Shown: positions 386 to 15,373 of the stretch, in pieces
Numbering within the stretch: the stretch's first letter is position 1
Layout of the letters: each line of letters begins with the position of its first letter
UHGV virus genome: UHGV-1832398
Strand: one strand, 5' to 3'
DNA length: 15,603 nt
DNA from: a virus
Notes under the pieces: generated by a model
The model's database searches: none
What the model saw: the letters and a program-made list of their open reading frames with translations, nothing else
Told to the model about the DNA's origin: nothing
Program-made: the position numbers and the translations under genes

Positions 386-1609
386 ATGGCGCTGTCTGAT
401 GCGTGGTTGCGTTCAGTCGTTGGAAAGGAACGTGATAAGGTTTTGGTTAAATCCGATCGTGATGGTCTGTCTGTCAGAGTATCACCGAAAGGTCGCGTAG
501 TGTTCCAATATCGTTATCAATGGGCAGGGAAAGGTGAGCGTCTTGATATCGGAACTTACCCGGCAACTGGATTAAAAGAGGCCAGAGAAGAAGTTATCCG
601 TCTCCGTGGTGAACTCGAGTCAAACCGTAATCCACGATTGGTCAAGCAGGCTGAAAAACGAAAAGCTACTGAAGCCATGACGGTAGAGTCTGTGATCCGT
701 GCCTGGTATGAAGCATATTGTGTAAAAAATAAAAAAGGTTCTGAACAGATACTCCGCTCGTTTGAGCTGCACCTGTTCTCTAAAATCGGGAATATCCCTC
801 ACGATGCAGCTACATTGCATGATTGGTTAGAAGTCTTGGAGCCTCTTAGCACTAAGACTCCAGCAATAGCAGACCGATTGCTAATTAACGCAAAGCAGGC
901 CCATGTCTGGGCGTATAAGAGAAAGCTCATTGAAACTCGCCCGCTGTCGGATATCACGGGTAAAGATATGGATATCCGTAAAGGTCAGAAGAAACGGTTT
1001 CTGACACATGATGAAATTAAAATCCTTTATTCTGCGATCGATGGTTCTCGAATGGTTCCTAAATACCGGGCCTTCATTAAACTACTGCTGCATTTTGGTT
1101 GCCGTAGTTCAGAGCTAATTACCGCCAGGGTGGACGATTTTGATTTCATTAATAAAGTATGGACTGTACCACCAGAACGACATAAGACTGGGGAGATAAC
1201 AGGCGAACCGCTAAAGCGGCCCATTATTGAACCGGTTGAAGAGCTTATAAAGTACGCTATCTCTATGAACAATGGTTCCGATATGCTTTTTACTAAGGAA
1301 GGAAGCAGGGAACCCGTTGGTCGAACATCATTGCAGTCGCTACCTTACAATTTAATGCAATACGCATGGCGGCGTTTTGGGTATCAATTCCCTCATTGGT
1401 CTCTTCATGATTTGAGACGGACAGCACGAACAAACTTTTCAGATCTTACTGCGCCTCATATCGCAGAAATAATGCTCGGTCATAAACTGCCAGGGGTATG
1501 GCAAGTTTATGACAAGAGCGATTATTTAGAAGAACAGCGTAAAGCTTACCAAAAATGGTGGGAGAGGATTGAGGCGATAGTTACTTGTACTTGTTCAGAC
1601 AGCAACTGA
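386..1609 (+). CDS. int: Tyrosine-type site-specific integrase (phage integrase)
   Basis: 407-aa ORF adjacent to the junction; C-terminal catalytic signature HDLRRTARTNF (H-x-x-R) and downstream Tyr (VYDKSDY); SD AGGTGA upstream. Confidence 0.9.
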   Translation: MALSDAWLRSVVGKERDKVLVKSDRDGLSVRVSPKGRVVFQYRYQWAGKGERLDIGTYPATGLKEAREEVIRLRGELESNRNPRLVKQAEKRKATEAMTVESVIRAWYEAYCVKNKKGSEQILRSFELHLFSKIGNIPHDAATLHDWLEVLEPLSTKTPAIADRLLINAKQAHVWAYKRKLIETRPLSDITGKDMDIRKGQKKRFLTHDEIKILYSAIDGSRMVPKYRAFIKLLLHFGCRSSELITARVDDFDFINKVWTVPPERHKTGEITGEPLKRPIIEPVEELIKYAISMNNGSDMLFTKEGSREPVGRTSLQSLPYNLMQYAWRRFGYQFPHWSLHDLRRTARTNFSDLTAPHIAEIMLGHKLPGVWQVYDKSDYLEEQRKAYQKWWERIEAIVTCTCSDSN

Positions 1610-1813: not shown

Positions 1814-3028
1814 ATGACTAAGCAAAAAAAACCTAGGAAAGTTCGGATAACAAAAGCTGAAAAAGAACGACGTGCAGAGTTTGATAAAAAGGAAATGAAT
1901 ATACGTGAGTATTTTTCAAATTTAAATAAACATGTGAACGATATTCGTAGTAAAGAGCGAGATTTTCATGGCCTTATCAGAGAACTGAATTACTTTCAAA
2001 AAAATATTGAATTTGAATACGAGAAAACGAGGGACATATCCCATCCAAGAGACTTAGGCAATGCTCGCGAAAATATACTAAAAGATTTTTTGAAATTAAG
2101 CGGTTTATTCCCAAGGCGTTATGCTGTGTCTTCAAGAAGCGTAAGAGTTGCTGCTGCTACAGGACATCTTAGCAACGAGATTGACATCGCATTATATGAT
2201 GCAGATGATGGATATGTGCTAATGCAGCGTAACGAAATATATGATGTTTACCCTTCTGAAAATGTATATGGAGTTATTCAAGTAAAATCAAAACTTACTA
2301 GGAAAGAATTAAGCAGTGCCATAAAAAATATTGCATCATATAAAAAACTACAAAGAAAAAAGAATGGCCATGGATTTTTTATAAATAACACATCATTCTC
2401 AGGGTTCGGAGTTGTTTTTGCATATGAAACAGAAATGCACTGGGATGATATAGTATCTGCTCTTAAGGAAGAAATCCAGAGTAATGAAACAAAATTACTA
2501 CCCAATGCAGTTTTCATATTAAATAAAGGCTATTTTTTATTTGGTAACAACAATGAATATCTGAGTTATAATTCAGATAGGATGATTAATGCAACTGACA
2601 TGATTGTACATGGCTTTCCTGATCGTGATGGTTGTTCCTTAGTTAACTTCCACAAGTTAATGATTACATTGTTGAATAATACTCAAAAAGGGAATGTAAA
2701 TATAAGTGATTATTATAGATTACCTTTAACTGCTGGAGATTATTCTTACGAATTTAATTTTGGTATGTTTAATGAGTTAATTAACTGTGAAGTACACGGT
2801 CCATATCATCGTTTATTCAAAGAGAAAGCTTTAAAAACATTAGTAAATTATTGTGTTAGCAATGAACAGATTAATATGGTTAAGTTAATCGACTTGGCTT
2901 TAGGTAAAACTCCAAATAATGAGGAAGCATACCAAAGACAACCATCGATGGTGACATTATATAACCCAGAAAATTTGCCACTACCTGAATTAATGTTTAG
3001 GGCGGTTCCGATGGTAAAGAATATATGA
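1814..3028 (+). CDS. Hypothetical 404-aa cargo protein; N-terminal region carries a restriction-endonuclease-like (Mrr/PD-(D/E)xK-type) signature, C-terminal ~220 aa unassigned
   Basis: Long ORF, markedly AT-rich relative to flanking phage genes. Motifs read from translation: GNARENILKDFLKLSG (aa 82-97), EIDIALYD (D124 at nt 2183-2185), VIQVKSK (Q156 at 2279-2281, K158 at 2285-2287). Followed by hairpin plus T-tract at 3168-3206. Confidence 0.6.
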   Translation: MTKQKKPRKVRITKAEKERRAEFDKKEMNIREYFSNLNKHVNDIRSKERDFHGLIRELNYFQKNIEFEYEKTRDISHPRDLGNARENILKDFLKLSGLFPRRYAVSSRSVRVAAATGHLSNEIDIALYDADDGYVLMQRNEIYDVYPSENVYGVIQVKSKLTRKELSSAIKNIASYKKLQRKKNGHGFFINNTSFSGFGVVFAYETEMHWDDIVSALKEEIQSNETKLLPNAVFILNKGYFLFGNNNEYLSYNSDRMINATDMIVHGFPDRDGCSLVNFHKLMITLLNNTQKGNVNISDYYRLPLTAGDYSYEFNFGMFNELINCEVHGPYHRLFKEKALKTLVNYCVSNEQINMVKLIDLALGKTPNNEEAYQRQPSMVTLYNPENLPLPELMFRAVPMVKNI

Positions 3029-3438: not shown

Positions 3439-3633
3439 TTACTCAATTACTCCAGCAAACCTGTATATCTTACGTGATGCCCATTTATTTGGGCAGGATT
3501 TAATATCAGGATCTGGAAAATCTTGTCTGTATTTCTGGCCAGTCCTCCTATTTACGCTGTTCCAGCGAAGCACCGTTGATATTGAAACGCCACAGAATTC
3601 GGCGACTTGTTTTGTTGTCATTAAGTTGTTCAT
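3439..3633 (-). CDS. AlpA/Xis-family small helix-turn-helix protein (candidate excisionase / prophage regulatory protein)
   Basis: 64 aa; N-terminal MNNLMTTKQVAEFCGVSISTVLRW matches the AlpA/excisionase HTH pattern (L-T-x-KQVAE-x-x-GVS-x-ST-x-x-RW); SD GGAGGGG upstream of the ATG at 3633. Confidence 0.7.
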   Translation of the reverse strand: MNNLMTTKQVAEFCGVSISTVLRWNSVNRRTGQKYRQDFPDPDIKSCPNKWASRKIYRFAGVIE

Positions 3634-3667: not shown

Positions 3668-4204
3668 TTATGCGCATGTGTGTAACTCCGATAACTCGTT
3701 AAAGCGCTCTATAAACATCCCGTAGGCATGGCCCGGTGCCAGTGGAATCACGTTGAACATCTCTGTTGCCGGGATGCCTTCCAGCACAGGCCAGAAAGAG
3801 CCATCATCAAGCCCGAGATCGCGGCGTTCGGTTGCCAGCATGATGAGATCGGCATATTTCACGGGCGTACTCATAACTGGGGGTAACCCGTATTTCTCAC
3901 GGATTACGGCGTCTATTTTTTCTTCCATCCGTTTATAGTCAGGAAGAAGGCGTTTCAGTGGTGCGGGGATGTCCTGGCAATATGCTTCTGTTGCATCATG
4001 CATTAACGCTTCAAAAACAAATTCCTGCGGTACCAGCTGGCTGCAAAGCACCGCATGTTGGGCGACGCTGTAGAAGTGTGAAAGATGCCCTGCAAAGCGA
4101 CAGATATTTGAAAGGGAAACCGCGATATCGTTAATCACGATATCGTCTTTATTTATCTTGTCATAATAAAAATGCTTCCCGGAAAAAGTTTTAATAAATG
4201 ACAT
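3668..4204 (-). CDS. yfdR: HD-domain 5'-deoxynucleotidase, YfdR-like (178 aa)
   Basis: HD-phosphohydrolase motif pattern (H...HD...D: FAGHLSHF, ALMHDATEAY); start at internal Met MSFIKTF supported by SD GGAG 8 nt upstream (the ORF track's longer start at 4234 lacks an SD); length matches CPS-53 YfdR from memory. Confidence 0.75.
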   Translation of the reverse strand: MSFIKTFSGKHFYYDKINKDDIVINDIAVSLSNICRFAGHLSHFYSVAQHAVLCSQLVPQEFVFEALMHDATEAYCQDIPAPLKRLLPDYKRMEEKIDAVIREKYGLPPVMSTPVKYADLIMLATERRDLGLDDGSFWPVLEGIPATEMFNVIPLAPGHAYGMFIERFNELSELHTCA

Positions 4205-4331
4205 TTTGTTCTCCACGTATATGTGCTGCACCACGCTGAATTCTGGTAAAAGGAAGCCCTCACCATCCGGCGATTATTGAGTTAATTACGTTTCCATAAA
4301 TGCCCCCGCAGGGGCATTTGCAGTAATGAAA

Positions 4332-5156
4332 TCAGGCGCTGAAAGTACCAATGAAGGTTTCTACTTTGCTGTCTTTGAATTTCTCAACAAGCAGATCACG
4401 AAATTCGTTAGCCATTTCTTCCTGCACCGCTTCCAGCTGAATAATGCGCAGAACCAGTACAGGACGATCGCCAGTGATAATGCTGAGGCGTAATTTAAAC
4501 GGACGTTCTTTCAGGCCTTCAAACGGAACGCATTTAAATTCAAATGCCACTGGCATAATATCTTTGGTTTTCGCTTCGACAGACTCCATCAGGGAGCGTT
4601 TGCCGCTGAAGTCATTATCTTCAAAATCAGCGGTCTGGTTTGCTTCAATCGTGATTTTACGGACAGCCGCAGCCGCTTTTGTTGCCTGAATAGCGTCACC
4701 ATTAGCATCAAAGCCCACAAGGTAGCCGGCCCAGTCTTCAATCCATTCTGCCAGTGACTTCTGGGAATGACGCTCGCCATTAACAGACAACAGAGCAGAG
4801 AACGGTGCTGTCTTTTTCAGTTTGAGAGTGGCGGTGTTATCTGCGTGACCTGGTTCATCAATAGTACCCAGGTTAAGCACACTGACGGCTCGCATATTAT
4901 CGGCATCGATAAAGCAGCGGGTGCCTTCATCTGCAAGATCTTTAGAATAACGGGTAAAGTCATCGATGCTGGCAGTGGAAAGCGCACCACGGAAACGGAA
5001 GCGATTTAAATTAAATTTTTCCAGATCATGAATGCGGAAATTCTCAGGCAATGCCACAGCATCGGCACCAATCTTACTGATAATTTCATTAACACCCTGA
5101 GCAGAAATAAGGGCATGGATTTGATTAATTGCGGTTGCGTCTAAGTTCTGAGACAT
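4332..5156 (-). CDS. yfdQ: YfdQ-like prophage protein (DUF2303-type, 274 aa)
   Basis: 274-aa ORF with SD GAGGA 7 nt upstream; length and synteny (between YfdP-like and YfdR-like) match the CPS-53 yfdP-yfdQ-yfdR arrangement as I recall it. Confidence 0.65.
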
Positions 5157-6666: not shown

Positions 6667-7293
6667 TTAGAGTTCGTATTGAACTCCTTTGACTACACCA
6701 ATGATAAGGCAATTACCATTGATAGGGATGTTGGGATACCGAGGATTTAATGGCACTAAAAACTTTTGAGGGCCATCGATGACTAATTTTTTTACTGTAG
6801 CTTCGTTTGTTCCATCAAGTCGAGCGATGACTATTTTTCCATGACGAGGTTCTGCATCTGGATCTACAATCACTGTTGCGCCTTCTGGTATTGTTGGGAG
6901 GCCATTAGGGTTAGTCATGGAGTCACCTTTAACCTCTAATGCAAATGAGTTATCACCAATCTTTAATGATGTATCTACCCACTTGTCCACTTCACTAAAC
7001 ACTTCTGCTGCCCTGCACTCAGTAAACTGCCCAGCCTGAACCCACGATATTACAGGAACTCTGCGCATGTTTGTGACGAGTTTGCCTTCAAACTCAGCAC
7101 CATAAAGAATGTAATCTATTGACGTATTGAAGAACTTCGCTAATTTCGAAAGTGCCTCCCCACCAGGGGTATTGATGTCTTTCTCCCAGTACCCCACAGC
7201 AACGTCGCTTACTCCACAAAATTTACCCAATTCTTTCTGGGACGTTCCGGTAACTCTTCTCAGAGCTTTTATACGCTGACCAACCGTTTCCAT
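6667..7293 (-). CDS. cI: CI-type prophage repressor with N-terminal HTH and C-terminal LexA-like S24 autopeptidase domain
   Basis: HTH region (QKELGKFCGVSDVAVGYWEKD); Ala-Gly cleavage site (WVQAGQF); Ser/Lys dyad motifs (GDSM ... VKKL). Confidence 0.9.
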   Translation of the reverse strand: METVGQRIKALRRVTGTSQKELGKFCGVSDVAVGYWEKDINTPGGEALSKLAKFFNTSIDYILYGAEFEGKLVTNMRRVPVISWVQAGQFTECRAAEVFSEVDKWVDTSLKIGDNSFALEVKGDSMTNPNGLPTIPEGATVIVDPDAEPRHGKIVIARLDGTNEATVKKLVIDGPQKFLVPLNPRYPNIPINGNCLIIGVVKGVQYEL

Positions 7294-7390
7294 AGGAGCA
7301 CCATTTCTTGAATTGCTAAGTAATCTTAGTTTTTATTGACCAAAGATAGATTTGTAATTAGCATCTAATAAAACTTAGTTTGGAGGGCGT
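7294..7390. promoter_or_regulatory. cI-cro intergenic control region (OR); candidate PR -35 TTGACC (7336-7341), -10 TAGCAT (7359-7364); palindromes CTAAG-TAAT-CTTAG (7316-7329) and ATTAG-CAT-CTAAT (7357-7369)
   Basis: Divergent cI/cro arrangement plus direct reading of promoter hexamers and palindromic operator-like sites. Confidence 0.5.
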
Positions 7391-7591
7391 ATGACAACTG
7401 ACGATATCGAAAGCTACTTCGGCAGTATTGAGAAAGTTGCTGCTTTTTTCGGCATAACAACTGAAGCCGTTTATCAGTGGCGAAACCGTCCGGGCCAGTT
7501 AATTCCAAAAGGACGTGCAGCAGAAGCTGCATATAGAACTTGCGGACGGTTGCCATTTAAACCTGAGCTTTATGAAAAATCTAATGGATAA
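7391..7591 (+). CDS. cro: Cro-like small HTH regulator
   Basis: 66-aa ORF divergent from cI with SD GGAGGG; HTH-like segment (VAAFFGITTEAVYQWRNR). Confidence 0.7.
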   Translation: MTTDDIESYFGSIEKVAAFFGITTEAVYQWRNRPGQLIPKGRAAEAAYRTCGRLPFKPELYEKSNG

Positions 7592-8180
7592 ATCGATTAA
7601 CAGAAACCACAGAACGATGAGGCTAACCGTGGGTAAGCATCACTGGAAAGTAGAAAAACAGCCTGAGTGGTACGTGAAAGCTGTCAGAAAAACTATCGCA
7701 GCGTTGCCGGGTGGTTACGCTGAAGCAGCTGACTGGCTGGATGTAACAGAAAACGCATTATTTAACCGCCTTCGTGCCGATGGCGATCAGATTTTCCCGC
7801 TGGGATGGGCAATGATTTTGCAACGTGCTGGTGGAACTCACTTCATTGCTGACGCTGTGGCGCAGTCTGCAAATGGCGTCTTTGTGTCTCTTCCTGACGT
7901 CGAGGATGTGGACAACGCCGATATTAACCAGCGCCTGCTGGAAGTCATTGAACAGATTGGCAGTTATTCCAGACAGATTCGTTCGGCAATCGAAGACGGT
8001 GTGGTGGAACCGCATGAGAAGACAGCAATTAACGACGAGCTGTATCTCTCAATTTCGAAGCTGCAGGAGCATGCAGCACTGGTCTACAAAATCTTTTGCA
8101 TTTCAGAAAGTAATGACGCCCGCGAGTGTGCAGCTCCGGGCGCCGTGGCGTGTCGTGACTGTGGAGAAACTAACGCATGA
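7584..8180 (+). CDS. CII-like regulatory protein (possibly phage 186 CII/CP76-type); start uncertain
   Basis: Position immediately after cro; the ORF track's start at 7515 overlaps cro, so the ATG at 7584 (overlapping the cro stop) is preferred but has no good SD; family assignment from recalled similarity only. Confidence 0.5.
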
Positions 8181-8535
8181 ACAGTTTAACAACACACTAC
8201 CGTCGCTCGCAACTGATTGCGCTTCCTGTACCGGGTGGAAAAGCGAAGGTGGAGTATTGCTATGCAGTTAATGTACCAGGTGACAGGGAAATTGTAACCC
8301 ACAGCTTTGCTGAGTGGGCTGTGGGGGATTTCAACCGGCAGAAGGAGACAGTCCTTTGCGACAAGTTAACCGCTGGTTCAAAGATCACTACGGAGTGCCC
8401 GTCAGAGTCATTCGTTGGGAGCCGGAAACACAACGAGTTATCTACCTCCGCGAAGGCTATGAGCATGAGTGCTTCAGCCCGCTCGAACAGTTTCGTCGTA
8501 AATTCAGGGAAATAGAGGTCGGTCATGAGCACTAA
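8177..8535 (+). pseudogene. Hypothetical gene between cII-like and the replication initiator, apparently split across two frames at a G5 run (8323-8327): N-terminal part 8177.. in one frame, C-terminal part ending 8535 in another
   Basis: ATGA start/stop overlap with the upstream gene at 8177-8180; second frame has a GTG at 8314 or a TTG at 8356 preceded by AAGGAG (8342-8347) and ends overlapping the next gene's start; both halves look protein-like; inserting one G in the homopolymer would fuse them into a ~119-aa ORF. Confidence 0.3.
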
Positions 8536-9466
8536 ATTAACCGGCTATGTATGGGATGGTTGCGCTGCATCAGGCATGAAATTATCCAGCGTGGCAATTA
8601 TGGCCCGCCTGGCTGATTTCAGTAATGACGAAGGTGTGTGCTGGCCATCAATTGAAACCATTGCCCGTCAGATTGGCGCGGGAATGAGTACCGTCAGAAC
8701 GGCTATCGCACGGCTGGAAGCAGAAGGCTGGTTAACGCGTAAGGCGCGTCGCCAGGGTAACCGCAATGCGTCGAATGTTTATCAGCTTAACGTTGCGAAG
8801 CTTCAGGCAGCGGCATTTTCTCAACTGTCAGATTCTGACCCGTCAAAATCTGACGCATCAAAATCTGACCCGTCAAAATTTGATGCGTCGAAATCTGGCA
8901 AAAAAGCGGGTTTTCACCCGTCAGAATCTGGCGGGGATCCGTCAGTAAAATCAAAACATGATCCGTCAGATAAAAAACCTTCTCGTCCGGACGCTTCGCA
9001 ACCGGACACGCAGACGGATGAACAGGATTTTTTAACTCGCCATCCTGATGCGGTTGTATTCAGCCCTAAAAAGCGCCAGTGGGGAACGCAGGATGATTTG
9101 ACCTGCGCACAGTGGCTCTGGAAAAAAATCATCGCCCTGTACGAGCAAGCCGCCGAATGTGACGGCGAGGTGGTTCGTCCCAAAGAACCGAACTGGACAG
9201 CCTGGGCAAACGAAATTCGCCTGATGTGTGTGCAGGATGGTCGTACTCACAAACAAATCTGCGAGATGTACAGCCGCGTCAGCCGCGATCCGTTCTGGTG
9301 CCGTAACGTGCTCAGCCCGTCGAAGCTGCGGGAAAAATGGGATGAGCTTTCCCTGCGCTTATCGCCGTCCGTCAGCACGTACACAGAAAAACGCGAAGAC
9401 CCGTACTTCAAAGCCAGTTACGACAATGTGGACTACAGCCAGATCCCGGCAGGATTCAGGGGGTGA
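8525..9466 (+). CDS. Replication initiator (lambda O-like organisation): N-terminal winged-helix DNA-binding domain, iteron-containing linker, C-terminal domain
   Basis: N-terminal HTH region (SVAIMARLADFSNDEGVCWPSIETIARQIGAGMSTVRTAIARLEAEGWL); tandem 15-bp DNA repeats inside the gene encode a low-complexity linker (SDSDPSKSDASKSDPSKFDASKS); SD GAGG upstream. Confidence 0.75.
   Translation: MSTKLTGYVWDGCAASGMKLSSVAIMARLADFSNDEGVCWPSIETIARQIGAGMSTVRTAIARLEAEGWLTRKARRQGNRNASNVYQLNVAKLQAAAFSQLSDSDPSKSDASKSDPSKFDASKSGKKAGFHPSESGGDPSVKSKHDPSDKKPSRPDASQPDTQTDEQDFLTRHPDAVVFSPKKRQWGTQDDLTCAQWLWKKIIALYEQAAECDGEVVRPKEPNWTAWANEIRLMCVQDGRTHKQICEMYSRVSRDPFWCRNVLSPSKLREKWDELSLRLSPSVSTYTEKREDPYFKASYDNVDYSQIPAGFRG
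8834..8975. repeat. Putative origin of replication: four tandem 15-bp iterons (TCTGACCCGTCAAAA-type at 8834, 8849, 8864, 8879) plus three dispersed CCGTCAG copies (8917, 8938, 8962) and an A-rich stretch
   Basis: Direct reading of the sequence; analogous to the ori-within-O arrangement of lambda. Confidence 0.6.
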
Positions 9467-9468
9467 GC

Positions 9469-9957
9469 ATGAGTCTTTTGAATGACGTTCAGAAATTCAT
9501 TGAAGCCCATCCGGGCTGTACTTCCGGAGACATTGCGGATGCTTTTGCAGGTTACTCACGGCAGCGCGTTCTGCAGTCAGCAAGCAAGTTACGTCAGAGT
9601 GGGCGTGTGGCTCACCGTTGTGAAGGAGATACACGCAGACATTTCCCGCGCCTGACTGAGAGAGCGCAGGAACCGGAACCACAACCAGTTCGAGAAACCA
9701 GACCTGTGCGCAATTTCTATGTCGGCACTAACGATCCACGGGTGATTTTGTGCCTGACCCGCCAGGCTGAAGAACTGGAGTCCAGGGGCTTATACCGTCG
9801 TGCTGCAACCGTGTGGATGGCGGCATTCCGTGAAAGCCACTCCCAGCCAGAACGAAACAATTTTCTGGCGCGTCGTGAGCGGTGCTTACGGAAAAGCAGC
9901 AAGCGCGCTGCATCGGGTGAAGAGTGGTATCTGTCAGGGAATTACGTGGGGGCTTAA
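9469..9957 (+). CDS. PerC-family-like transcriptional regulator (N-terminal HTH-like region plus PerC-like motif)
   Basis: Motif TRQAEELESRGLYRRAATVWMAAF resembles the conserved PerC/Pch core as I recall it; ATG at 9469 preceded by AGGGGG; the ORF track's GTG at 9463 overlaps the upstream stop. Confidence 0.5.
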   Translation: MSLLNDVQKFIEAHPGCTSGDIADAFAGYSRQRVLQSASKLRQSGRVAHRCEGDTRRHFPRLTERAQEPEPQPVRETRPVRNFYVGTNDPRVILCLTRQAEELESRGLYRRAATVWMAAFRESHSQPERNNFLARRERCLRKSSKRAASGEEWYLSGNYVGA

Positions 9958-10283
9958 TGACGACGTTAACTCAATGCCAGCAGCAGGTGCTGGATATGCT
10001 GATTTCTTATCAGAAAGAACGTGGCTTCCCGCCAACCAATCAGGAGGTGGCAACCATGCTGGGATACCGTTCGGTGAATGCAGCGGTGGAGCATCTTCGT
10101 GCGCTGGAGAAAAAAGGCGTCATCACGATAAAGCGTGGCGTGGCCCGGGGGATAACGCTTCATACCGCGGTGAAGGACGACGACAGCGAGGCGGTCGGGA
10201 TTATCCGCGCACTGCTTGCCGGTGAGGAAAACGCAAAGCTGCGTGCAACCCACTGGTTACATGAGAGGGGCCTGAAAGTATGA
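9957..10283 (+). CDS. LexA N-terminal DNA-binding-domain protein lacking the S24 peptidase domain
   Basis: MTTLTQCQQQVLDMLISYQKERGFPPTNQEVATMLGYRSVNAAVEHLRALEKKGVI aligns closely with the LexA N-terminus (MKALTARQQEVFDLI...[34 protein letters not shown]); ORF ends after ~108 aa with no Ala-Gly/Ser/Lys autopeptidase motifs; TAATG overlap with the upstream gene. Confidence 0.8.
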   Translation: MTTLTQCQQQVLDMLISYQKERGFPPTNQEVATMLGYRSVNAAVEHLRALEKKGVITIKRGVARGITLHTAVKDDDSEAVGIIRALLAGEENAKLRATHWLHERGLKV

Positions 10284-10669
10284 AGCTGATCCTGCCTTTT
10301 CCGCCCAGCGTGAACACGTACTGGCGACACCCCAACAAAGGGGCGTTTGCTGGTAAGAGCCTGATAAGCGCGGCGGGGCGAAAATTTCAGAGCGCGGCGT
10401 GTGCAGCAATAGTTGAGCAGTTACGTCGTCTGCCAAAACCAACGTCGGCACCTGCTTCAGTGGAGATCGTGTTGTTTCCTCCGGATAACAGGATCCGCGA
10501 TCTGGACAACTATAACAAGGCACTGTTTGACGCCCTGACACACGCGGGTGTGTGGGAAGACGACAGCCAGGTGAAAAGAATGCTGGTGGAGTGGGGACCG
10601 GTTATCCCGAAAGGGAAGGTCGAGATCACTATCAGTAAGTATGAGAAACCGGCGGGTGCAGCCGCCTGA
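10280..10669 (+). CDS. rusA: RusA-family Holliday junction resolvase
   Basis: Motifs LPFPPSVNTYWRH, RIRDLDNYNKALFDALTHAGVWEDDSQV match RusA; ATGA overlap with the upstream gene. Confidence 0.9.
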   Translation: MKLILPFPPSVNTYWRHPNKGAFAGKSLISAAGRKFQSAACAAIVEQLRRLPKPTSAPASVEIVLFPPDNRIRDLDNYNKALFDALTHAGVWEDDSQVKRMLVEWGPVIPKGKVEITISKYEKPAGAAA

Positions 10670-10688: not shown

Positions 10689-11498
10689 ATGAATAATCTG
10701 ATGGTCATTGATGGTATTGAAGTTCGTCGTGATGCTTATGGGCGTTACAGCCTGAACGATCTGCACAGGGCAGCCGGGGGAGAACAAAAAAACCGCCCGA
10801 AATACTGGCTCTCCAATAAGCAAACCTGTGAATTGATTGAACAACTTTTCACCGAGGGTGGAATTACGCCTCTGGAACAAAATCAACCAGTTAGCGTCAT
10901 TAATGGCGGAAATAACCAGGGGACGTATGTCTGCAAAGAACTGGTGTATGCCTATGCAATGTGGATCAGCCCGTCATTCCATCTGAAGGTGATCCGTACT
11001 TTCGATATGGTAACCAGCGCACCGGAAAAATTATCCGGGCAGGCTGCTGACAAGATGCAGGCTGGAGTGATTCTGCTGGACTTTATGCGCAGGGAGTTAA
11101 ACCTGTCTAACTCTTCAGTGCTTGGTGCCTGTCAGAAACTCCAGGAGGCTGTTGGCTTACCGAATCTGGCACCGCGCTATGCCATTGATGCTCCTGCTGA
11201 CGCGCCTGATGGCTCAAGTCGCCCTACGCTGTCGCTGAGTGCACTGCTGAAACAGTATGGTATCCGCCTGACGGCTAATCAGGCATATCACCAGATGGTG
11301 AAACTGGGGATCGTCGAGCAGCGCGAACGATACAGTCGTACTGCGATTAACAACATCAAAAAATTCTGGTCGCTGACAGCGAAAGGTTGCATGTTCGGCA
11401 AGAACATCACCAGTCCCGCAAATCCGCGCGAGACGCAGCCGCATTTCTTCGAATCCCGATTCCCTGAGCTGTTAAAGCTGCTCGATACCGTTCATTGA
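10689..11498 (+). CDS. KilA-N domain protein (antirepressor-like)
   Basis: N-terminal KilA-N pattern (IDGIEVRRDAYGRYSLNDLHRAAGG ... KYWLSNKQT ... GTYVCKELVYAYAMWISPSFHLKVI); SD GAGGAG. Confidence 0.75.
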   Translation: MNNLMVIDGIEVRRDAYGRYSLNDLHRAAGGEQKNRPKYWLSNKQTCELIEQLFTEGGITPLEQNQPVSVINGGNNQGTYVCKELVYAYAMWISPSFHLKVIRTFDMVTSAPEKLSGQAADKMQAGVILLDFMRRELNLSNSSVLGACQKLQEAVGLPNLAPRYAIDAPADAPDGSSRPTLSLSALLKQYGIRLTANQAYHQMVKLGIVEQRERYSRTAINNIKKFWSLTAKGCMFGKNITSPANPRETQPHFFESRFPELLKLLDTVH

Positions 11499-11499
11499 G

Positions 11500-12495
11500 G
11501 TGACCGTGAGAGCATTACTGACCCCTGAAATTGCCCCGCGTATGGGGATCGTATTGTTCAGGCCAGGTTCAGAGCTGATGCCCCTGTTTATGCAGGGGCG
11601 TGTCCTGCTGGAGCCTGAGCCGGAACGTTATTCATCTTTCGCCAGTGGTGCCGTTCCGGCGGCATCACAACCGCTGGCGGATGATCCTGCCGTTCGGGCC
11701 GTGTTCCGCAATGAGGCAGTGATCCGTCGTGCTGGTGGCGTGGAATGTCTTGAAAGCTGGTTACTTCGTGAAAAAGGCTGCCAGTGGCCTCATTCCGATT
11801 GGCACAGCGAGAACATGACCACAATGCGACACGCGCCGGGCGCAATCCGTCTGTGCTGGCACTGCGATAACCAGCTGCGTGATCAGTTCACGGAACGGCT
11901 GGAATCAATGGCAACGGATAACTGTGCCCGCTGGGTGTTGTCTGTTGTGCGTCGGGATCTCGGTTTTGATGACAGTCACGTTGTGACAATGCCGGAACTG
12001 TGCTGGTGGCTGATTCGTAATGACCTGGCGGATGCCTTACCGGAAAGTGCAGCCCGTAAGGCACTGAGATTACCGAAGCCTGTTGTGCCGTCTGTCACCC
12101 GGGAAAGTGACCTTGTGCCTTCGGTTCCTGCCACCAGCATCATCCAGGATAAGGCGAAAAATGTGCTGGCGCTGAAAGTGGATCCGGAGTCGCCGGAGTC
12201 TTTTATGTTACGCCCCAAACGTCGCCGCTGGGTTAATGAAAAGTACACGCGCTGGGTTAAGACGCAGCCGTGCGCATGTTGTGGAAAGCCAGCTGATGAT
12301 CCCCACCACCTGATAGGCCACGGTCAGGGTGGAATGGGTACAAAAGCGCATGATCTCTTTGTGTTGCCTTTGTGCAGAAAGCATCACGACGAGCTGCATG
12401 CGGATACCGTGACATTTGAAGAGAAGTATGGCTCCCAACTGGAGCTGATATTTCGTTTTATCGATCGTGCGCTGGCAATTGGCGTACTGGCGTAA
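11500..12495 (+). CDS. DUF968-type prophage protein (YdfU-like) with C-terminal HNH-like Cys/His motif
   Basis: C-terminal CACCGKPADDPHHLIGHGQGGMGTKAHDLFVLPLCRKHHDELH; GTG start 1 nt after the KilA-N stop; position between KilA-N and Q as in Qin-type late-regulatory regions. Confidence 0.65.
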   Translation: MTVRALLTPEIAPRMGIVLFRPGSELMPLFMQGRVLLEPEPERYSSFASGAVPAASQPLADDPAVRAVFRNEAVIRRAGGVECLESWLLREKGCQWPHSDWHSENMTTMRHAPGAIRLCWHCDNQLRDQFTERLESMATDNCARWVLSVVRRDLGFDDSHVVTMPELCWWLIRNDLADALPESAARKALRLPKPVVPSVTRESDLVPSVPATSIIQDKAKNVLALKVDPESPESFMLRPKRRRWVNEKYTRWVKTQPCACCGKPADDPHHLIGHGQGGMGTKAHDLFVLPLCRKHHDELHADTVTFEEKYGSQLELIFRFIDRALAIGVLA

Positions 12496-12508
12496 GTGGA
12501 GAACGAGC

Positions 12509-13261
12509 ATGAACCTTGAAGCCTTACCAAAATATTACTCCCCAAAATCTCCAAAATTGAGTGATGCCGCACCGGCGACAGGCTCAGGTGGTTTAACGAT
12601 TACGGATGTGATGGCTGCGCAGGGGATGGTGCAGTCGAAAGCACCGCTTGGGTTTGCCTTATTCCTGGCAAAAGCTGGCGTTCAGGATCCTCAGTTTGCG
12701 ATTGAAGGTCTGCTCAATTACGCGATGGCACTGGATAACCCGACATTGAACAAATTGAGTGAAGAAATCCGGTTACAGATCATCCCTTACCTTGTGAGTT
12801 TTGCCTTTGCTGATTATTCCAGGTCTGCGGCAAGTAAGGCTCGCTGTGAGCCTTGTGCTGGTACTGGATTTCATAATGTATTGCGCGAAGTGGTGAAATA
12901 CTCCAGAAGCGGGGAGTCTGTTATCAAGGAAGAGTGGGTGAAGGAACTATGTCAGCATTGTCATGGTAAGGGAGAAGTCAGCACAGCGTGCAGAGGGTGT
13001 AAGGGTAAAGGTATTGTCCTGGATGAAAAAAGGACCCGGCTTCATGGCGCGCCTGTTTATAAGATTTGTGGGCGTTGCAATGGAAACCGGTTTAGTCGTT
13101 TACCAACGACACTGGCGCGGTGTCATGTCCAGAAGCTGGTACCAGACCTGACTGATTATCAGTGGTACAAAGGATATGCAGATGTCATTGATAAACTGGT
13201 TACAAAGTGCTGGCAGGAAGAAGCATATGCTGAGGTGCAATTAAGAAAAGTGACGAGATAA
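12509..13261 (+). CDS. Late-gene antiterminator Q (QuuQ-like, 250 aa) with multiple CxxC zinc-binding motifs
   Basis: Position immediately upstream of a promoter/terminator pair and the lysis cassette; CxxCxGxG-type repeats (CEPCAGTG, CQHCHGKG, CRGCKGKG, CGRCNG); start at ATG 12509 with SD GGAG (the ORF track's 12467 start lacks an SD). Confidence 0.7.
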   Translation: MNLEALPKYYSPKSPKLSDAAPATGSGGLTITDVMAAQGMVQSKAPLGFALFLAKAGVQDPQFAIEGLLNYAMALDNPTLNKLSEEIRLQIIPYLVSFAFADYSRSAASKARCEPCAGTGFHNVLREVVKYSRSGESVIKEEWVKELCQHCHGKGEVSTACRGCKGKGIVLDEKRTRLHGAPVYKICGRCNGNRFSRLPTTLARCHVQKLVPDLTDYQWYKGYADVIDKLVTKCWQEEAYAEVQLRKVTR

Positions 13262-13676: not shown

Positions 13677-13889
13677 TCATGAAAGGTAAACATTGGCAGC
13701 TGAAGGGCCACGCAGACCATTTATCCGGCAAAATTCCACGCGTAATCCGGTGGTAATTTCTTCTGCATCGCGGAGATTGAGCGCTGAAACATGAAGCTGG
13801 ACATCGATACGACCATCGGATGGGGTGATAAGACCCTTGCCGCTTTTGCCGTCAAAGGTTTTGACAATTCCTGTCATTTTACGGGACAA
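13677..13889 (-). CDS. cspF: CspF/CspH-like cold-shock-domain protein
   Basis: 70 aa; [26 protein letters not shown] ... [14 protein letters not shown] has the cold-shock-domain fold pattern but lacks the canonical aromatic RNP motifs, as in CspF/H. Confidence 0.8.
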
Positions 13890-14189
13890 AAAAATTCCTT
13901 AATACTGATAACTGGGCGCACTATACACACGTTCCTGAAGAAAGCTATAGTTTTTTGATGGGGGTGAAGATGGCTGGATGTCTAAAATAAACATTGCTTC
14001 ATATGTTCAACTATGCGTTAATGATTGCGTCGGTTTGAAGAACAGACGATATACGAAGTAGTTTACTAAAGCAGTTCTCATTTCAGGTGTTATTCACTTA
14101 TTCCTTCTTTGAGTCTCTCCAATTAAGTACGAAGTCGTTTCTGTTATACAAGCCATTTATGCCGAAAGGCTCAAGTTAAGGAATGTAGA

Positions 14190-14405
14190 ATGTCAAATAA
14201 AATGACTGGTTTAGTAAAATGGTTTAACGCTGATAAAGGTTTCGGCTTTATTTCTCCTGTTGATGGTAGTAAAGATGTGTTTGTGCATTTTTCTGCGATT
14301 CAGAATGATAATTTTCGAACCTTATTTGAAGGTCAAAAGGTTACCTTCTCTGTAGAGAGTGGTGCTAAAGGTCCTGCAGCAGCAAATGTCATAATTACTG
14401 ATTAA
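14190..14405 (+). CDS. cspB: CspB/CspA-family cold-shock protein
   Basis: 71 aa; [19 protein letters not shown] ... VFVHFSAI (RNP1/RNP2 motifs); conserved 5'-UTR 'upstream box' GCCGAAAGGC at 14161-14170 as in cspA-family leaders. Confidence 0.85.
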
Positions 14406-14686
14406 AATTCATAGTTTGTCTGTATACGATAACGAAGAAGGCTGATGCCTGAGTGGAGATACAGACAGAGTGGTGAATATTGGATCTCTTTAATAAATAG
14501 TAAGGAGGTCCAATACATGAAACAATGGCCAGCATATTTGGCAATAACTTAATCAGGAAAAGTATGCTAACCATTGTGGTGAAGTGCAGGTTTGCTGCAT
14601 GAATAGTTTTACAGCAGAAGCTAACTGCTGGCATAGCAAAACAAAGTGCGTAAGTGGATGACTCCCACAAAAAGTACCACAATATT

Positions 14687-14768: not shown

Positions 14769-14939
14769 TCAAGCTACAGCTTTAAGATTTGTCTGGAATA
14801 CTTTGTTGCAATGAGGGCAGATCAAAAGGGTACCTTTTTGTACTCTTGAAAAACTGTGTTCTGACTCTTGGGTGCAGTTTGGGCAGGAACATTTAACGAG
14901 ATAATTACGGCGTGATTTTGAGTCTTTACGTTCTGACAT
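14769..14939 (-). CDS. Hypothetical small zinc-ribbon protein (56 aa; CSCPNC ... CPHC)
   Basis: Start at internal Met MSERKDSK with SD AGGA 7 nt upstream; two CxxC pairs; the ORF track's longer version starts at 14990 without an SD. Confidence 0.5.
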   Translation of the reverse strand: MSERKDSKSRRNYLVKCSCPNCTQESEHSFSRVQKGTLLICPHCNKVFQTNLKAVA

Positions 14940-15157
14940 AGGCTTTTCCTGTATAAATGGCCGTATACAGTACACTAAATATGAAAACATATCTCGTATT
15001 ATTATTTAATATATGATTTTCTTTTAAAATAATTACCCACATTTTTAATGTGTCTGTTTTTTAGCGCCGTTGAGAACAACGTTTGCTATAAAAACTAACC
15101 CATAGACTCCGATCTTTTCAAACATATTGCACCATCTGTGTACATCGGGGTGAGGAT

Positions 15158-15373
15158 ATGAAATCAATGGATAAGTTAACAACAGGTATCGCCTATGGCA
15201 CATCGGCTGGTAATGCTGGTTTCTGGGCATTGCAGTTACTCGATAAAGTAACTCCGTCACAGTGGGCTGCAATCGGTGTGCTGGGTAGTCTGGTTTTTGG
15301 CCTGCTGACGTATCTGACAAACCTTTATTTCAAGATTAAAGAAGACAGGCGTAAGGTTGCGAGAAGAGAGTAA
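15158..15373 (+). CDS. S21-family class II holin (pinholin) with dual-start motif MKSM
   Basis: 71 aa, N-terminus [18 protein letters not shown]... closely matches the phage 21 S / EssD-EssQ pinholin family from memory; two transmembrane segments; SD GGTGAGGA. Confidence 0.85.

Follow-up and report, generated by a model that had tools for sequence, protein, structure and literature searches.

YfdN, a predicted winged-helix protein with a PerC/ANR-type core encoded in the early-right operon of a lambdoid prophage

The analyzed window, i.e. the whole 15,603-nt stretch of virus genome UHGV-1832398, is the left half of a lambdoid prophage. The following genes, junctions and sites were distinguished within it.

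386–1609, plus strand: integrase gene
1814–3028, plus strand: gene for a DUF6602/NucC-like nuclease
3439–3633, minus strand: gene for an excisionase-like HTH protein
3668–4234, minus strand: gene for a YfdR-like 5′-deoxynucleotidase
4332–5156, minus strand: gene for YfdQ (DUF2303)
6667–7293, minus strand: gene for a CI-type repressor
7336–7364, plus strand: best sigma-70-like site, upstream of cro; putative pR-type promoter of the yfdN operon
7391–7591, plus strand: cro
7515–8180, plus strand: cII-like gene
8525–9466, plus strand: gene for an O-like initiator, with internal iterons
9458–9468, plus strand: upstream junction of yfdN, with an SD-like AGGGGG (9458–9463), the initiator stop codon TGA (9464–9466) and 2 nt to the ATG
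9469–9957, plus strand: yfdN coding sequence (162 aa; ATG at 9469, stop codon TAA at 9955–9957)
9955–9959, plus strand: downstream junction TAATG, in which the yfdN stop codon overlaps the start of the next reading frame
9957–10283, plus strand: gene for a protein composed of a LexA DNA-binding domain (LexA-DBD) only
10280–10669, plus strand: rusA
10689–11498, plus strand: gene for a KilA-N protein
11500–12495, plus strand: gene for a DUF968/HNH protein
12467–13261, plus strand: gene for the Q antiterminator

The yfdN reading frame is open from position 9463, and the alternative start codon given in RefSeq, GTG 9463, lies two codons before ATG 9469. We favour the latter, since the relatives in an alignment of 31 sequences begin with MS[LIM]. 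The encoded protein shares 160 of 162 residues with YfdN (b2357) of Escherichia coli K-12, and the name “yfdN: PerC family transcriptional regulator” is already given by RefSeq/PGAP. The gene is thus known, named and annotated with its family, so that its detection as such adds little. It has been described as “the K12 unique PerC homologue” and was deleted, as a precaution, from a K-12 ler::lacZ reporter host (PMC5931665). In a full-text literature search, 15 papers named yfdN, and among them we found neither a functional test of the gene nor an assay of YfdN on ler; the mentions include overexpression or screen lists and one predicted interactome cluster.

At the DNA level, 49 phage records match yfdN with 95–100% identity, including those of Escherichia phage SKA5 (100%), mEp460 and Stx2a- and Stx2c-converting phages. 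The gene is carried by 2674 of the 5426 complete E. coli genomes (about half) and is chromosomal in nearly all of them. It is full-length in 2547 genomes, and it is also present in inducible or plaque-forming phages (mEp460, SKA5 and the Stx2 phages).

The upstream junction of yfdN is equally tight, or overlapping, at loci L005, L006, L008 and L093. In a consensus scan, whose overall yield of promoter-like sites did not exceed that of shuffled sequence, the site upstream of cro was the only promoter-like one on the plus strand in the interval from the repressor gene to yfdN. No plus-strand terminator-like sites were found between positions 7400 and 11900, and Rfam and tRNA scans gave nothing at the yfdN locus. 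Given the tight junctions and the lack of a nearer promoter-like site or a terminator-like site, yfdN lies inside the early-right operon, without a promoter-like site of its own, and is not a moron expressed in lysogeny. Because it would be transcribed from the early-right promoter together with cro, cII, the initiator gene, rusA and Q, expression of yfdN is expected on infection or induction, and not in a quiescent lysogen. Such a timing is consistent with the 12.6-fold induction of yfdN by NO in strain CFT073, where neighbouring prophage genes respond likewise.

Other parts of the window also carry distinctive features. Directly after the integrase gene lies the gene for the DUF6602 protein (1814–3028), whose 404 aa include a PD-(D/E)xK NucC-like domain (PADLOC: PD_DExK, 2e-24; NucC, 1.5e-16). 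No PHROG match was found for this protein, which is probably anti-phage defence or abortive-infection cargo. Within the initiator gene (8525–9466), positions 8813–8975 contain six to eight tandem 15-bp repeats, TCAAAATCTGACSCR, with overlapping inverted repeats. These iterons encode the peptide repeat PSKSDASKSDPSKFDASKS and are probably the phage replication origin. The 108-aa LexA-DBD protein (Pfam LexA_DNA_bind, 69 bits) has no S24 peptidase domain and is therefore presumably not cleavable; it might occupy SOS boxes while the phage grows lytically. Its gene stays beside the yfdN slot in diverged prophages as well. Two cold-shock-domain genes are located downstream of Q, at 13677–13889 (minus strand) and 14190–14405 (plus strand), the second of which lies within a full-length match to the Rfam cspA thermoregulator (14029–14468, 158 bits). 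A YnfU zinc-ribbon gene (14769–14990, minus strand) and a P21-type holin gene (15158–15373) follow.

An AlphaFold model of YfdN built with the 31-sequence alignment (mean pLDDT 86.9), together with the profile matches described below, divides the coding sequence as follows.

9469–9654, plus strand: predicted N-terminal winged helix-turn-helix (wHTH) domain (aa 1–62, pI 9.8)
9655–9735, plus strand: flexible, Pro/Glu-rich linker (about aa 61–89; low pLDDT, gapped in the alignment)
9736–9909, plus strand: predicted three-helix core of PerC/ANR type (aa 90–147; PF06069 and ANR matches, pLDDT >96)
9757–9828, plus strand: motif TRQAEELESRGLYRRAATVWMAAF (aa 97–120), lying within the core
9910–9954, plus strand: C-terminal tail (about aa 148–162) with the motif W-x-L-[AS]-G-x-[YF]-x-G; low pLDDT

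The N-terminal domain is modelled as three helices (residues 3–13, 19–25 and 31–43) followed by two wing strands (47–52 and 55–60), all with pLDDT >94. This is the H1-H2-H3 plus β-hairpin wing arrangement of the winged-helix fold, and Arg/Lys residues are present in both H3 and the wing. The HTH-like segment that the original prediction had noticed at the N terminus is therefore borne out, as a winged helix, in the model. The same fold can also make protein contacts, as it does in the N-terminal domain of T4 MotA. Helices of the core are predicted at residues 90–106, 109–122 and 126–146. Within it L103, R111 and A112 are invariant, while A100, A113, R136 and C139 are nearly so. The linker varies in length among the relatives of YfdN. 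Two glycines of the tail, G157 and G161, are near-invariant across the 31 relatives, and the tail motif is absent from short PerC-like proteins with a long C terminus. In its appearance the conserved tail looks like a short linear docking motif. According to the model, YfdN is a winged helix fused to a PerC/ANR core, and this architecture sets it apart from PerC and Pch proper.

PDB sequence searches with the YfdN protein and with a profile of the PerC core returned nothing significant, and thus no solved relative of that core. The AlphaFold model computed from the single sequence was poor (pLDDT 67.6), and the Foldseek matches (Lrp/AsnC wHTH, TPR and MIT; E>0.5) are to be read as hints. A TPR-like core is not claimed, the candidate matches being the weak Foldseek ones and an insignificant SNX21 alignment. 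A Ren-like PHROG match to the N-terminal domain (E=0.014) was judged to be generic winged-helix similarity, and assignment of YfdN to a defence system by PADLOC (GajB, E=0.0094, no stretch passing the threshold) is not credible.

Membership in the PerC family had originally been proposed from a motif in the protein. The reading frame and the motif, with their coordinates, proved to be exact, and the profile search suggested at that time, when run, gave a match to Pfam PerC (PF06069) with 36.1 bits, well over the gathering score of 22.6 (E=7.7e-9, aa 98–149), in agreement with the RefSeq/PGAP name and the literature. The motif TRQAEELESRGLYRRAATVWMAAF aligns with the core shared by short PerC-family proteins, and in this core alignment the A, L, G, RAA, R and C positions are invariant. 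A 104-aa PerC-family ORF (L091), which matches one genome only and is a plasmid stand-in, being neither O157 PchA/B/C nor EPEC PerC, is identical to YfdN at 18 of 45 positions (40%; E=6e-8). PHROG 1324 (“transcriptional activator”) matches YfdN over its full length (1.3e-78). The Pfam match covers only profile positions 5–56 of 90. Positions 57–90, the C-terminal third of the profile, have no counterpart in YfdN, and the C-terminal segment common to short PerC-like proteins is absent from it. YfdN does not, then, have the full-length single-domain PerC architecture (~90–105 aa, whole profile).

The NCBIfam ANR model (NF033650) aligns with aa 96–142 of YfdN over 47 of its 54 positions, with a score of 23.6 bits that is below the cut-off of 32 (E=3.4e-5). 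HMMER, run exhaustively against 1.84 billion representatives, detected 99 relatives of YfdN, of which ~30 are full-length (138–165 aa, 25–48% identity) and a few are short PerC-only proteins. Since all 31 aligned diverse relatives match Pfam PerC and 19 of them also match the ANR model (E≤0.01, best 4e-9), PerC and ANR overlap as families in sequence space. ANR matches were likewise noted for the PerC-like protein of the EcCIMP1 PICI by the authors who studied that island.

The surroundings of the gene were compared in 80 viral contigs (L011–L090) in which yfdN is 99–100% identical, a set that shows variation of the flanks and not diversity of the gene. A match to an HTH_36-type initiator lies upstream in 79 of the 80 contigs, with the same tight junction in 77 of these 79. 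The initiators fall into three allele classes, with ≥95% identity (53 loci), 60–70% (3) and about 30% (23). As the three classes adjoin a yfdN that stays at least 99% identical, a mosaic recombination junction must be placed exactly at the start of yfdN (window 9463–9469). The gene travels with the downstream module and has no tie to a particular initiator. On its other side, the LexA-DBD gene is matched at 77 loci, and at 64 of them a ~650-bp gene, called a methyltransferase gene in annotated records, separates it from yfdN. This ~650-bp gene is missing from the window (at 9955–9960); ten contigs share the deletion-type arrangement, and L019 matches the window at 100%.

In diverged prophages, whose YfdN-like proteins are 27–34% identical, the order initiator, wHTH-PerC protein, methyltransferase, LexA-DBD protein and RusA is retained with overlapping junctions. 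The methyltransferase position is occupied there by three unrelated families (Dam, MT-A70 and D12). The protein of the yfdN slot is the fastest-diverging one of this syntenic early-right module, with 27–34% identity versus 45–81% for its neighbours at L005, L008 and L093 (e.g. RusA, 80–81%; KilA-N, 73%; DUF968, 60–66%). Other relatives of YfdN are encoded just upstream of Q or in RecT/ExoVIII early operons, and PerC-like genes have also been reported on PICIs. Short PerC-only genes were also seen in a phage-plasmid between ssb and capsid genes (L092:3007–3279), and two of them lie in tandem behind ssb and a ProQ-family gene (L095:1724–2287). Such locations suggest that genes of the PerC family are, as a rule, early genes of mobile elements.

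We give about an even chance to the view that YfdN, whose gene is a conserved member of the early operon of an Enterobacteriaceae lambdoid prophage, is a DNA-tethered transcription modulator. The protein would be produced on infection or induction from the early-right promoter and placed on DNA by its basic winged helix, while the PerC/ANR core may act as a small helical protein-interaction module that disturbs repressive nucleoprotein complexes or transcription factors. By analogy, the core could work as do Pch/PerC, which relieve H-NS/StpA/Hha silencing, or ANR proteins, whose binding partners are H-NS and AraC-type activators. It probably acts on promoters of the phage or of the host at large, and not specifically on ler.

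The original prediction had gone beyond the family and seen in YfdN a possible cross-regulator of host virulence or host genes, which would activate the LEE1 (ler) promoter in the manner of Pch/PerC. The PerC-family part of that interpretation stands, PerC and PchA/B/C do activate ler, one group took the precaution of removing yfdN from its ler::lacZ host, and the same gene is present on Stx2a/Stx2c-converting phages. The family is, however, variable in this respect: PchD has no effect on ler, PchE has a less than twofold one, the PICI homologues of EDL933 and CFT073 do not affect LEE, and EcCIMP1_025 represses LEE1. The partial profile match, the LEE-free carriers (about half of complete E. 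coli genomes carry the gene, K-12 included, and most carriers cannot have LEE) and the internal position in an early operon also leave the ler/LEE part unsupported. Cross-regulation of LEE or virulence is not favoured here, and direct activation of ler by YfdN seems highly unlikely. Activity in the opposite direction, with an ANR-like core that binds and inactivates a host or phage transcription factor of AraC/XylS type or H-NS and makes YfdN a negative regulator in the manner of EcCIMP1_025 on LEE1, is in keeping with the ANR matches of YfdN and its relatives, with the overlap of the two families noted by others, and with the repressor activity shown for a PerC-annotated protein. The ANR score of YfdN is nevertheless below the cut-off, and ANR proteins are small, single-domain and partnered with AraC-type factors, whereas YfdN has an additional wHTH domain in its 162 aa. 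No AraC-family match was found by Pfam among the 20 other ORFs of the window that were scanned. We regard such anti-activation as a rather unlikely, though tangible, alternative.

The place of yfdN directly after the HTH_36-type initiator gene, with a tight junction in nearly all close contigs (77 of 79) and in diverged prophages, is reminiscent of the position of λ P, and might point to a replication accessory, e.g. a helicase-loading adaptor or an ori-binding factor partnering the O-like initiator. We see no distinct gene for a helicase loader in the window, and the ori-like iterons lie ~500 bp upstream of yfdN. The initiator has matches of its own to DnaD-like loader and primosomal profiles, though, and other relatives of YfdN are encoded away from replication genes, before Q or beside RecT. 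In K-12 an intact yfdN adjoins a truncated initiator gene. Moreover, the swapping of initiator alleles beside a nearly invariant yfdN argues against co-inheritance with a specific initiator; on this test (53/3/23 loci in the three classes) the initiator-partner idea was rejected, and a replication role appears improbable. Finally, no phenotype has been assigned to yfdN, whose K-12 copy lies between truncated genes in the defective prophage CPS-53, as might an ORF that is decaying, or is carried along without a function, in cryptic prophages. Against this, both domains and their specific residues are kept down to 25% identity in ~30 representative clusters, the structure is modelled with confidence, and the gene is full-length in 2547 genomes as well as in inducible or plaque-forming phages. 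We find loss of function scarcely credible.

The architecture, the genomic position and the rapid divergence of YfdN suggest a role in the phage cycle rather than at LEE. A broader proposal, which we put forward only tentatively and consider doubtful as a whole, is that wHTH-PerC/ANR proteins form a class of early-right DNA-tethered counter-silencers or anti-activators that remodel H-NS-type complexes on induction. The PerC/ANR core would then be a generic early module of mobile elements (phage early operons, PICIs and plasmid ssb regions), and activation of LEE by PerC/Pch one late specialization of it. If this were true, changing specificity for DNA or host proteins would be mirrored in the faster divergence of the yfdN slot compared with the adjacent genes. 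The label “PerC family” on a prophage gene should not be taken to mean “LEE activator”: the YfdN subfamily has another architecture, belongs to an early lytic operon, and is found in thousands of non-LEE E. coli genomes and also in Stx-converting phages. YfdN is among the most widespread uncharacterized putative regulators of E. coli prophages, and its confidently predicted two-domain structure and fixed genomic slot make it an easy experimental target. Work on this protein could also help to settle how the PerC/ANR core acts.

One of the closest known systems is YfdN of the cryptic K-12 prophage CPS-53/KpLE1. Its gene has the same neighbours, with yfdO as the initiator remnant and with yfdP, yfdQ and yfdR matching the left arm of the window. 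The adjoining initiator and methyltransferase genes of K-12 are truncated copies, whereas in the window the initiator gene is intact and the methyltransferase gene absent.

PerC of EPEC and PchA/B/C of EHEC share with YfdN a core of ~50 residues, predicted to form three helices (A-x2-LE-x2-G-[LF]-[YW]-RRAA-x-W ... RR-x2-C, as read from short PerC-family proteins and not from EPEC PerC itself), and all of them are encoded on mobile elements. PerC and the Pch proteins are single-domain, while YfdN adds the predicted N-terminal winged helix, the linker and a WxLAGxYxG tail of its own. The pchA/B/C genes (315 bp, about 104 aa) activate LEE1 by relief of H-NS silencing. Pch activates LEE1 only under silencing by H-NS/StpA/Hha and lowers H-NS occupancy, as demonstrated for PchA only; co-precipitation gave no Pch–H-NS complex. 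The PerC-like proteins of PICIs (EcCIMP1_025, EcCIEDL933 and EcCICFT073) resemble YfdN in being encoded by phage-related mobile elements, and their effect on LEE is absent or negative. Their genes sit on satellite islands, in contrast to the location of yfdN in a lambdoid early-right operon.

The ANR family (Aar, Rnr) has a three-helix core like that predicted for YfdN. Its members are small stand-alone proteins that contact AraC-type activators and H-NS directly, whereas YfdN is a two-domain phage early protein. With regard to the modelled winged helix, YfdN shows no significant sequence-family membership with MarR, ArsR/SmtB, MecI/BlaI, Fur or the T4 MotA N-domain. The dimerization/ligand domains of the MarR, ArsR/SmtB, MecI/BlaI and Fur proteins are absent from YfdN, in which the partner domain is of the PerC type.
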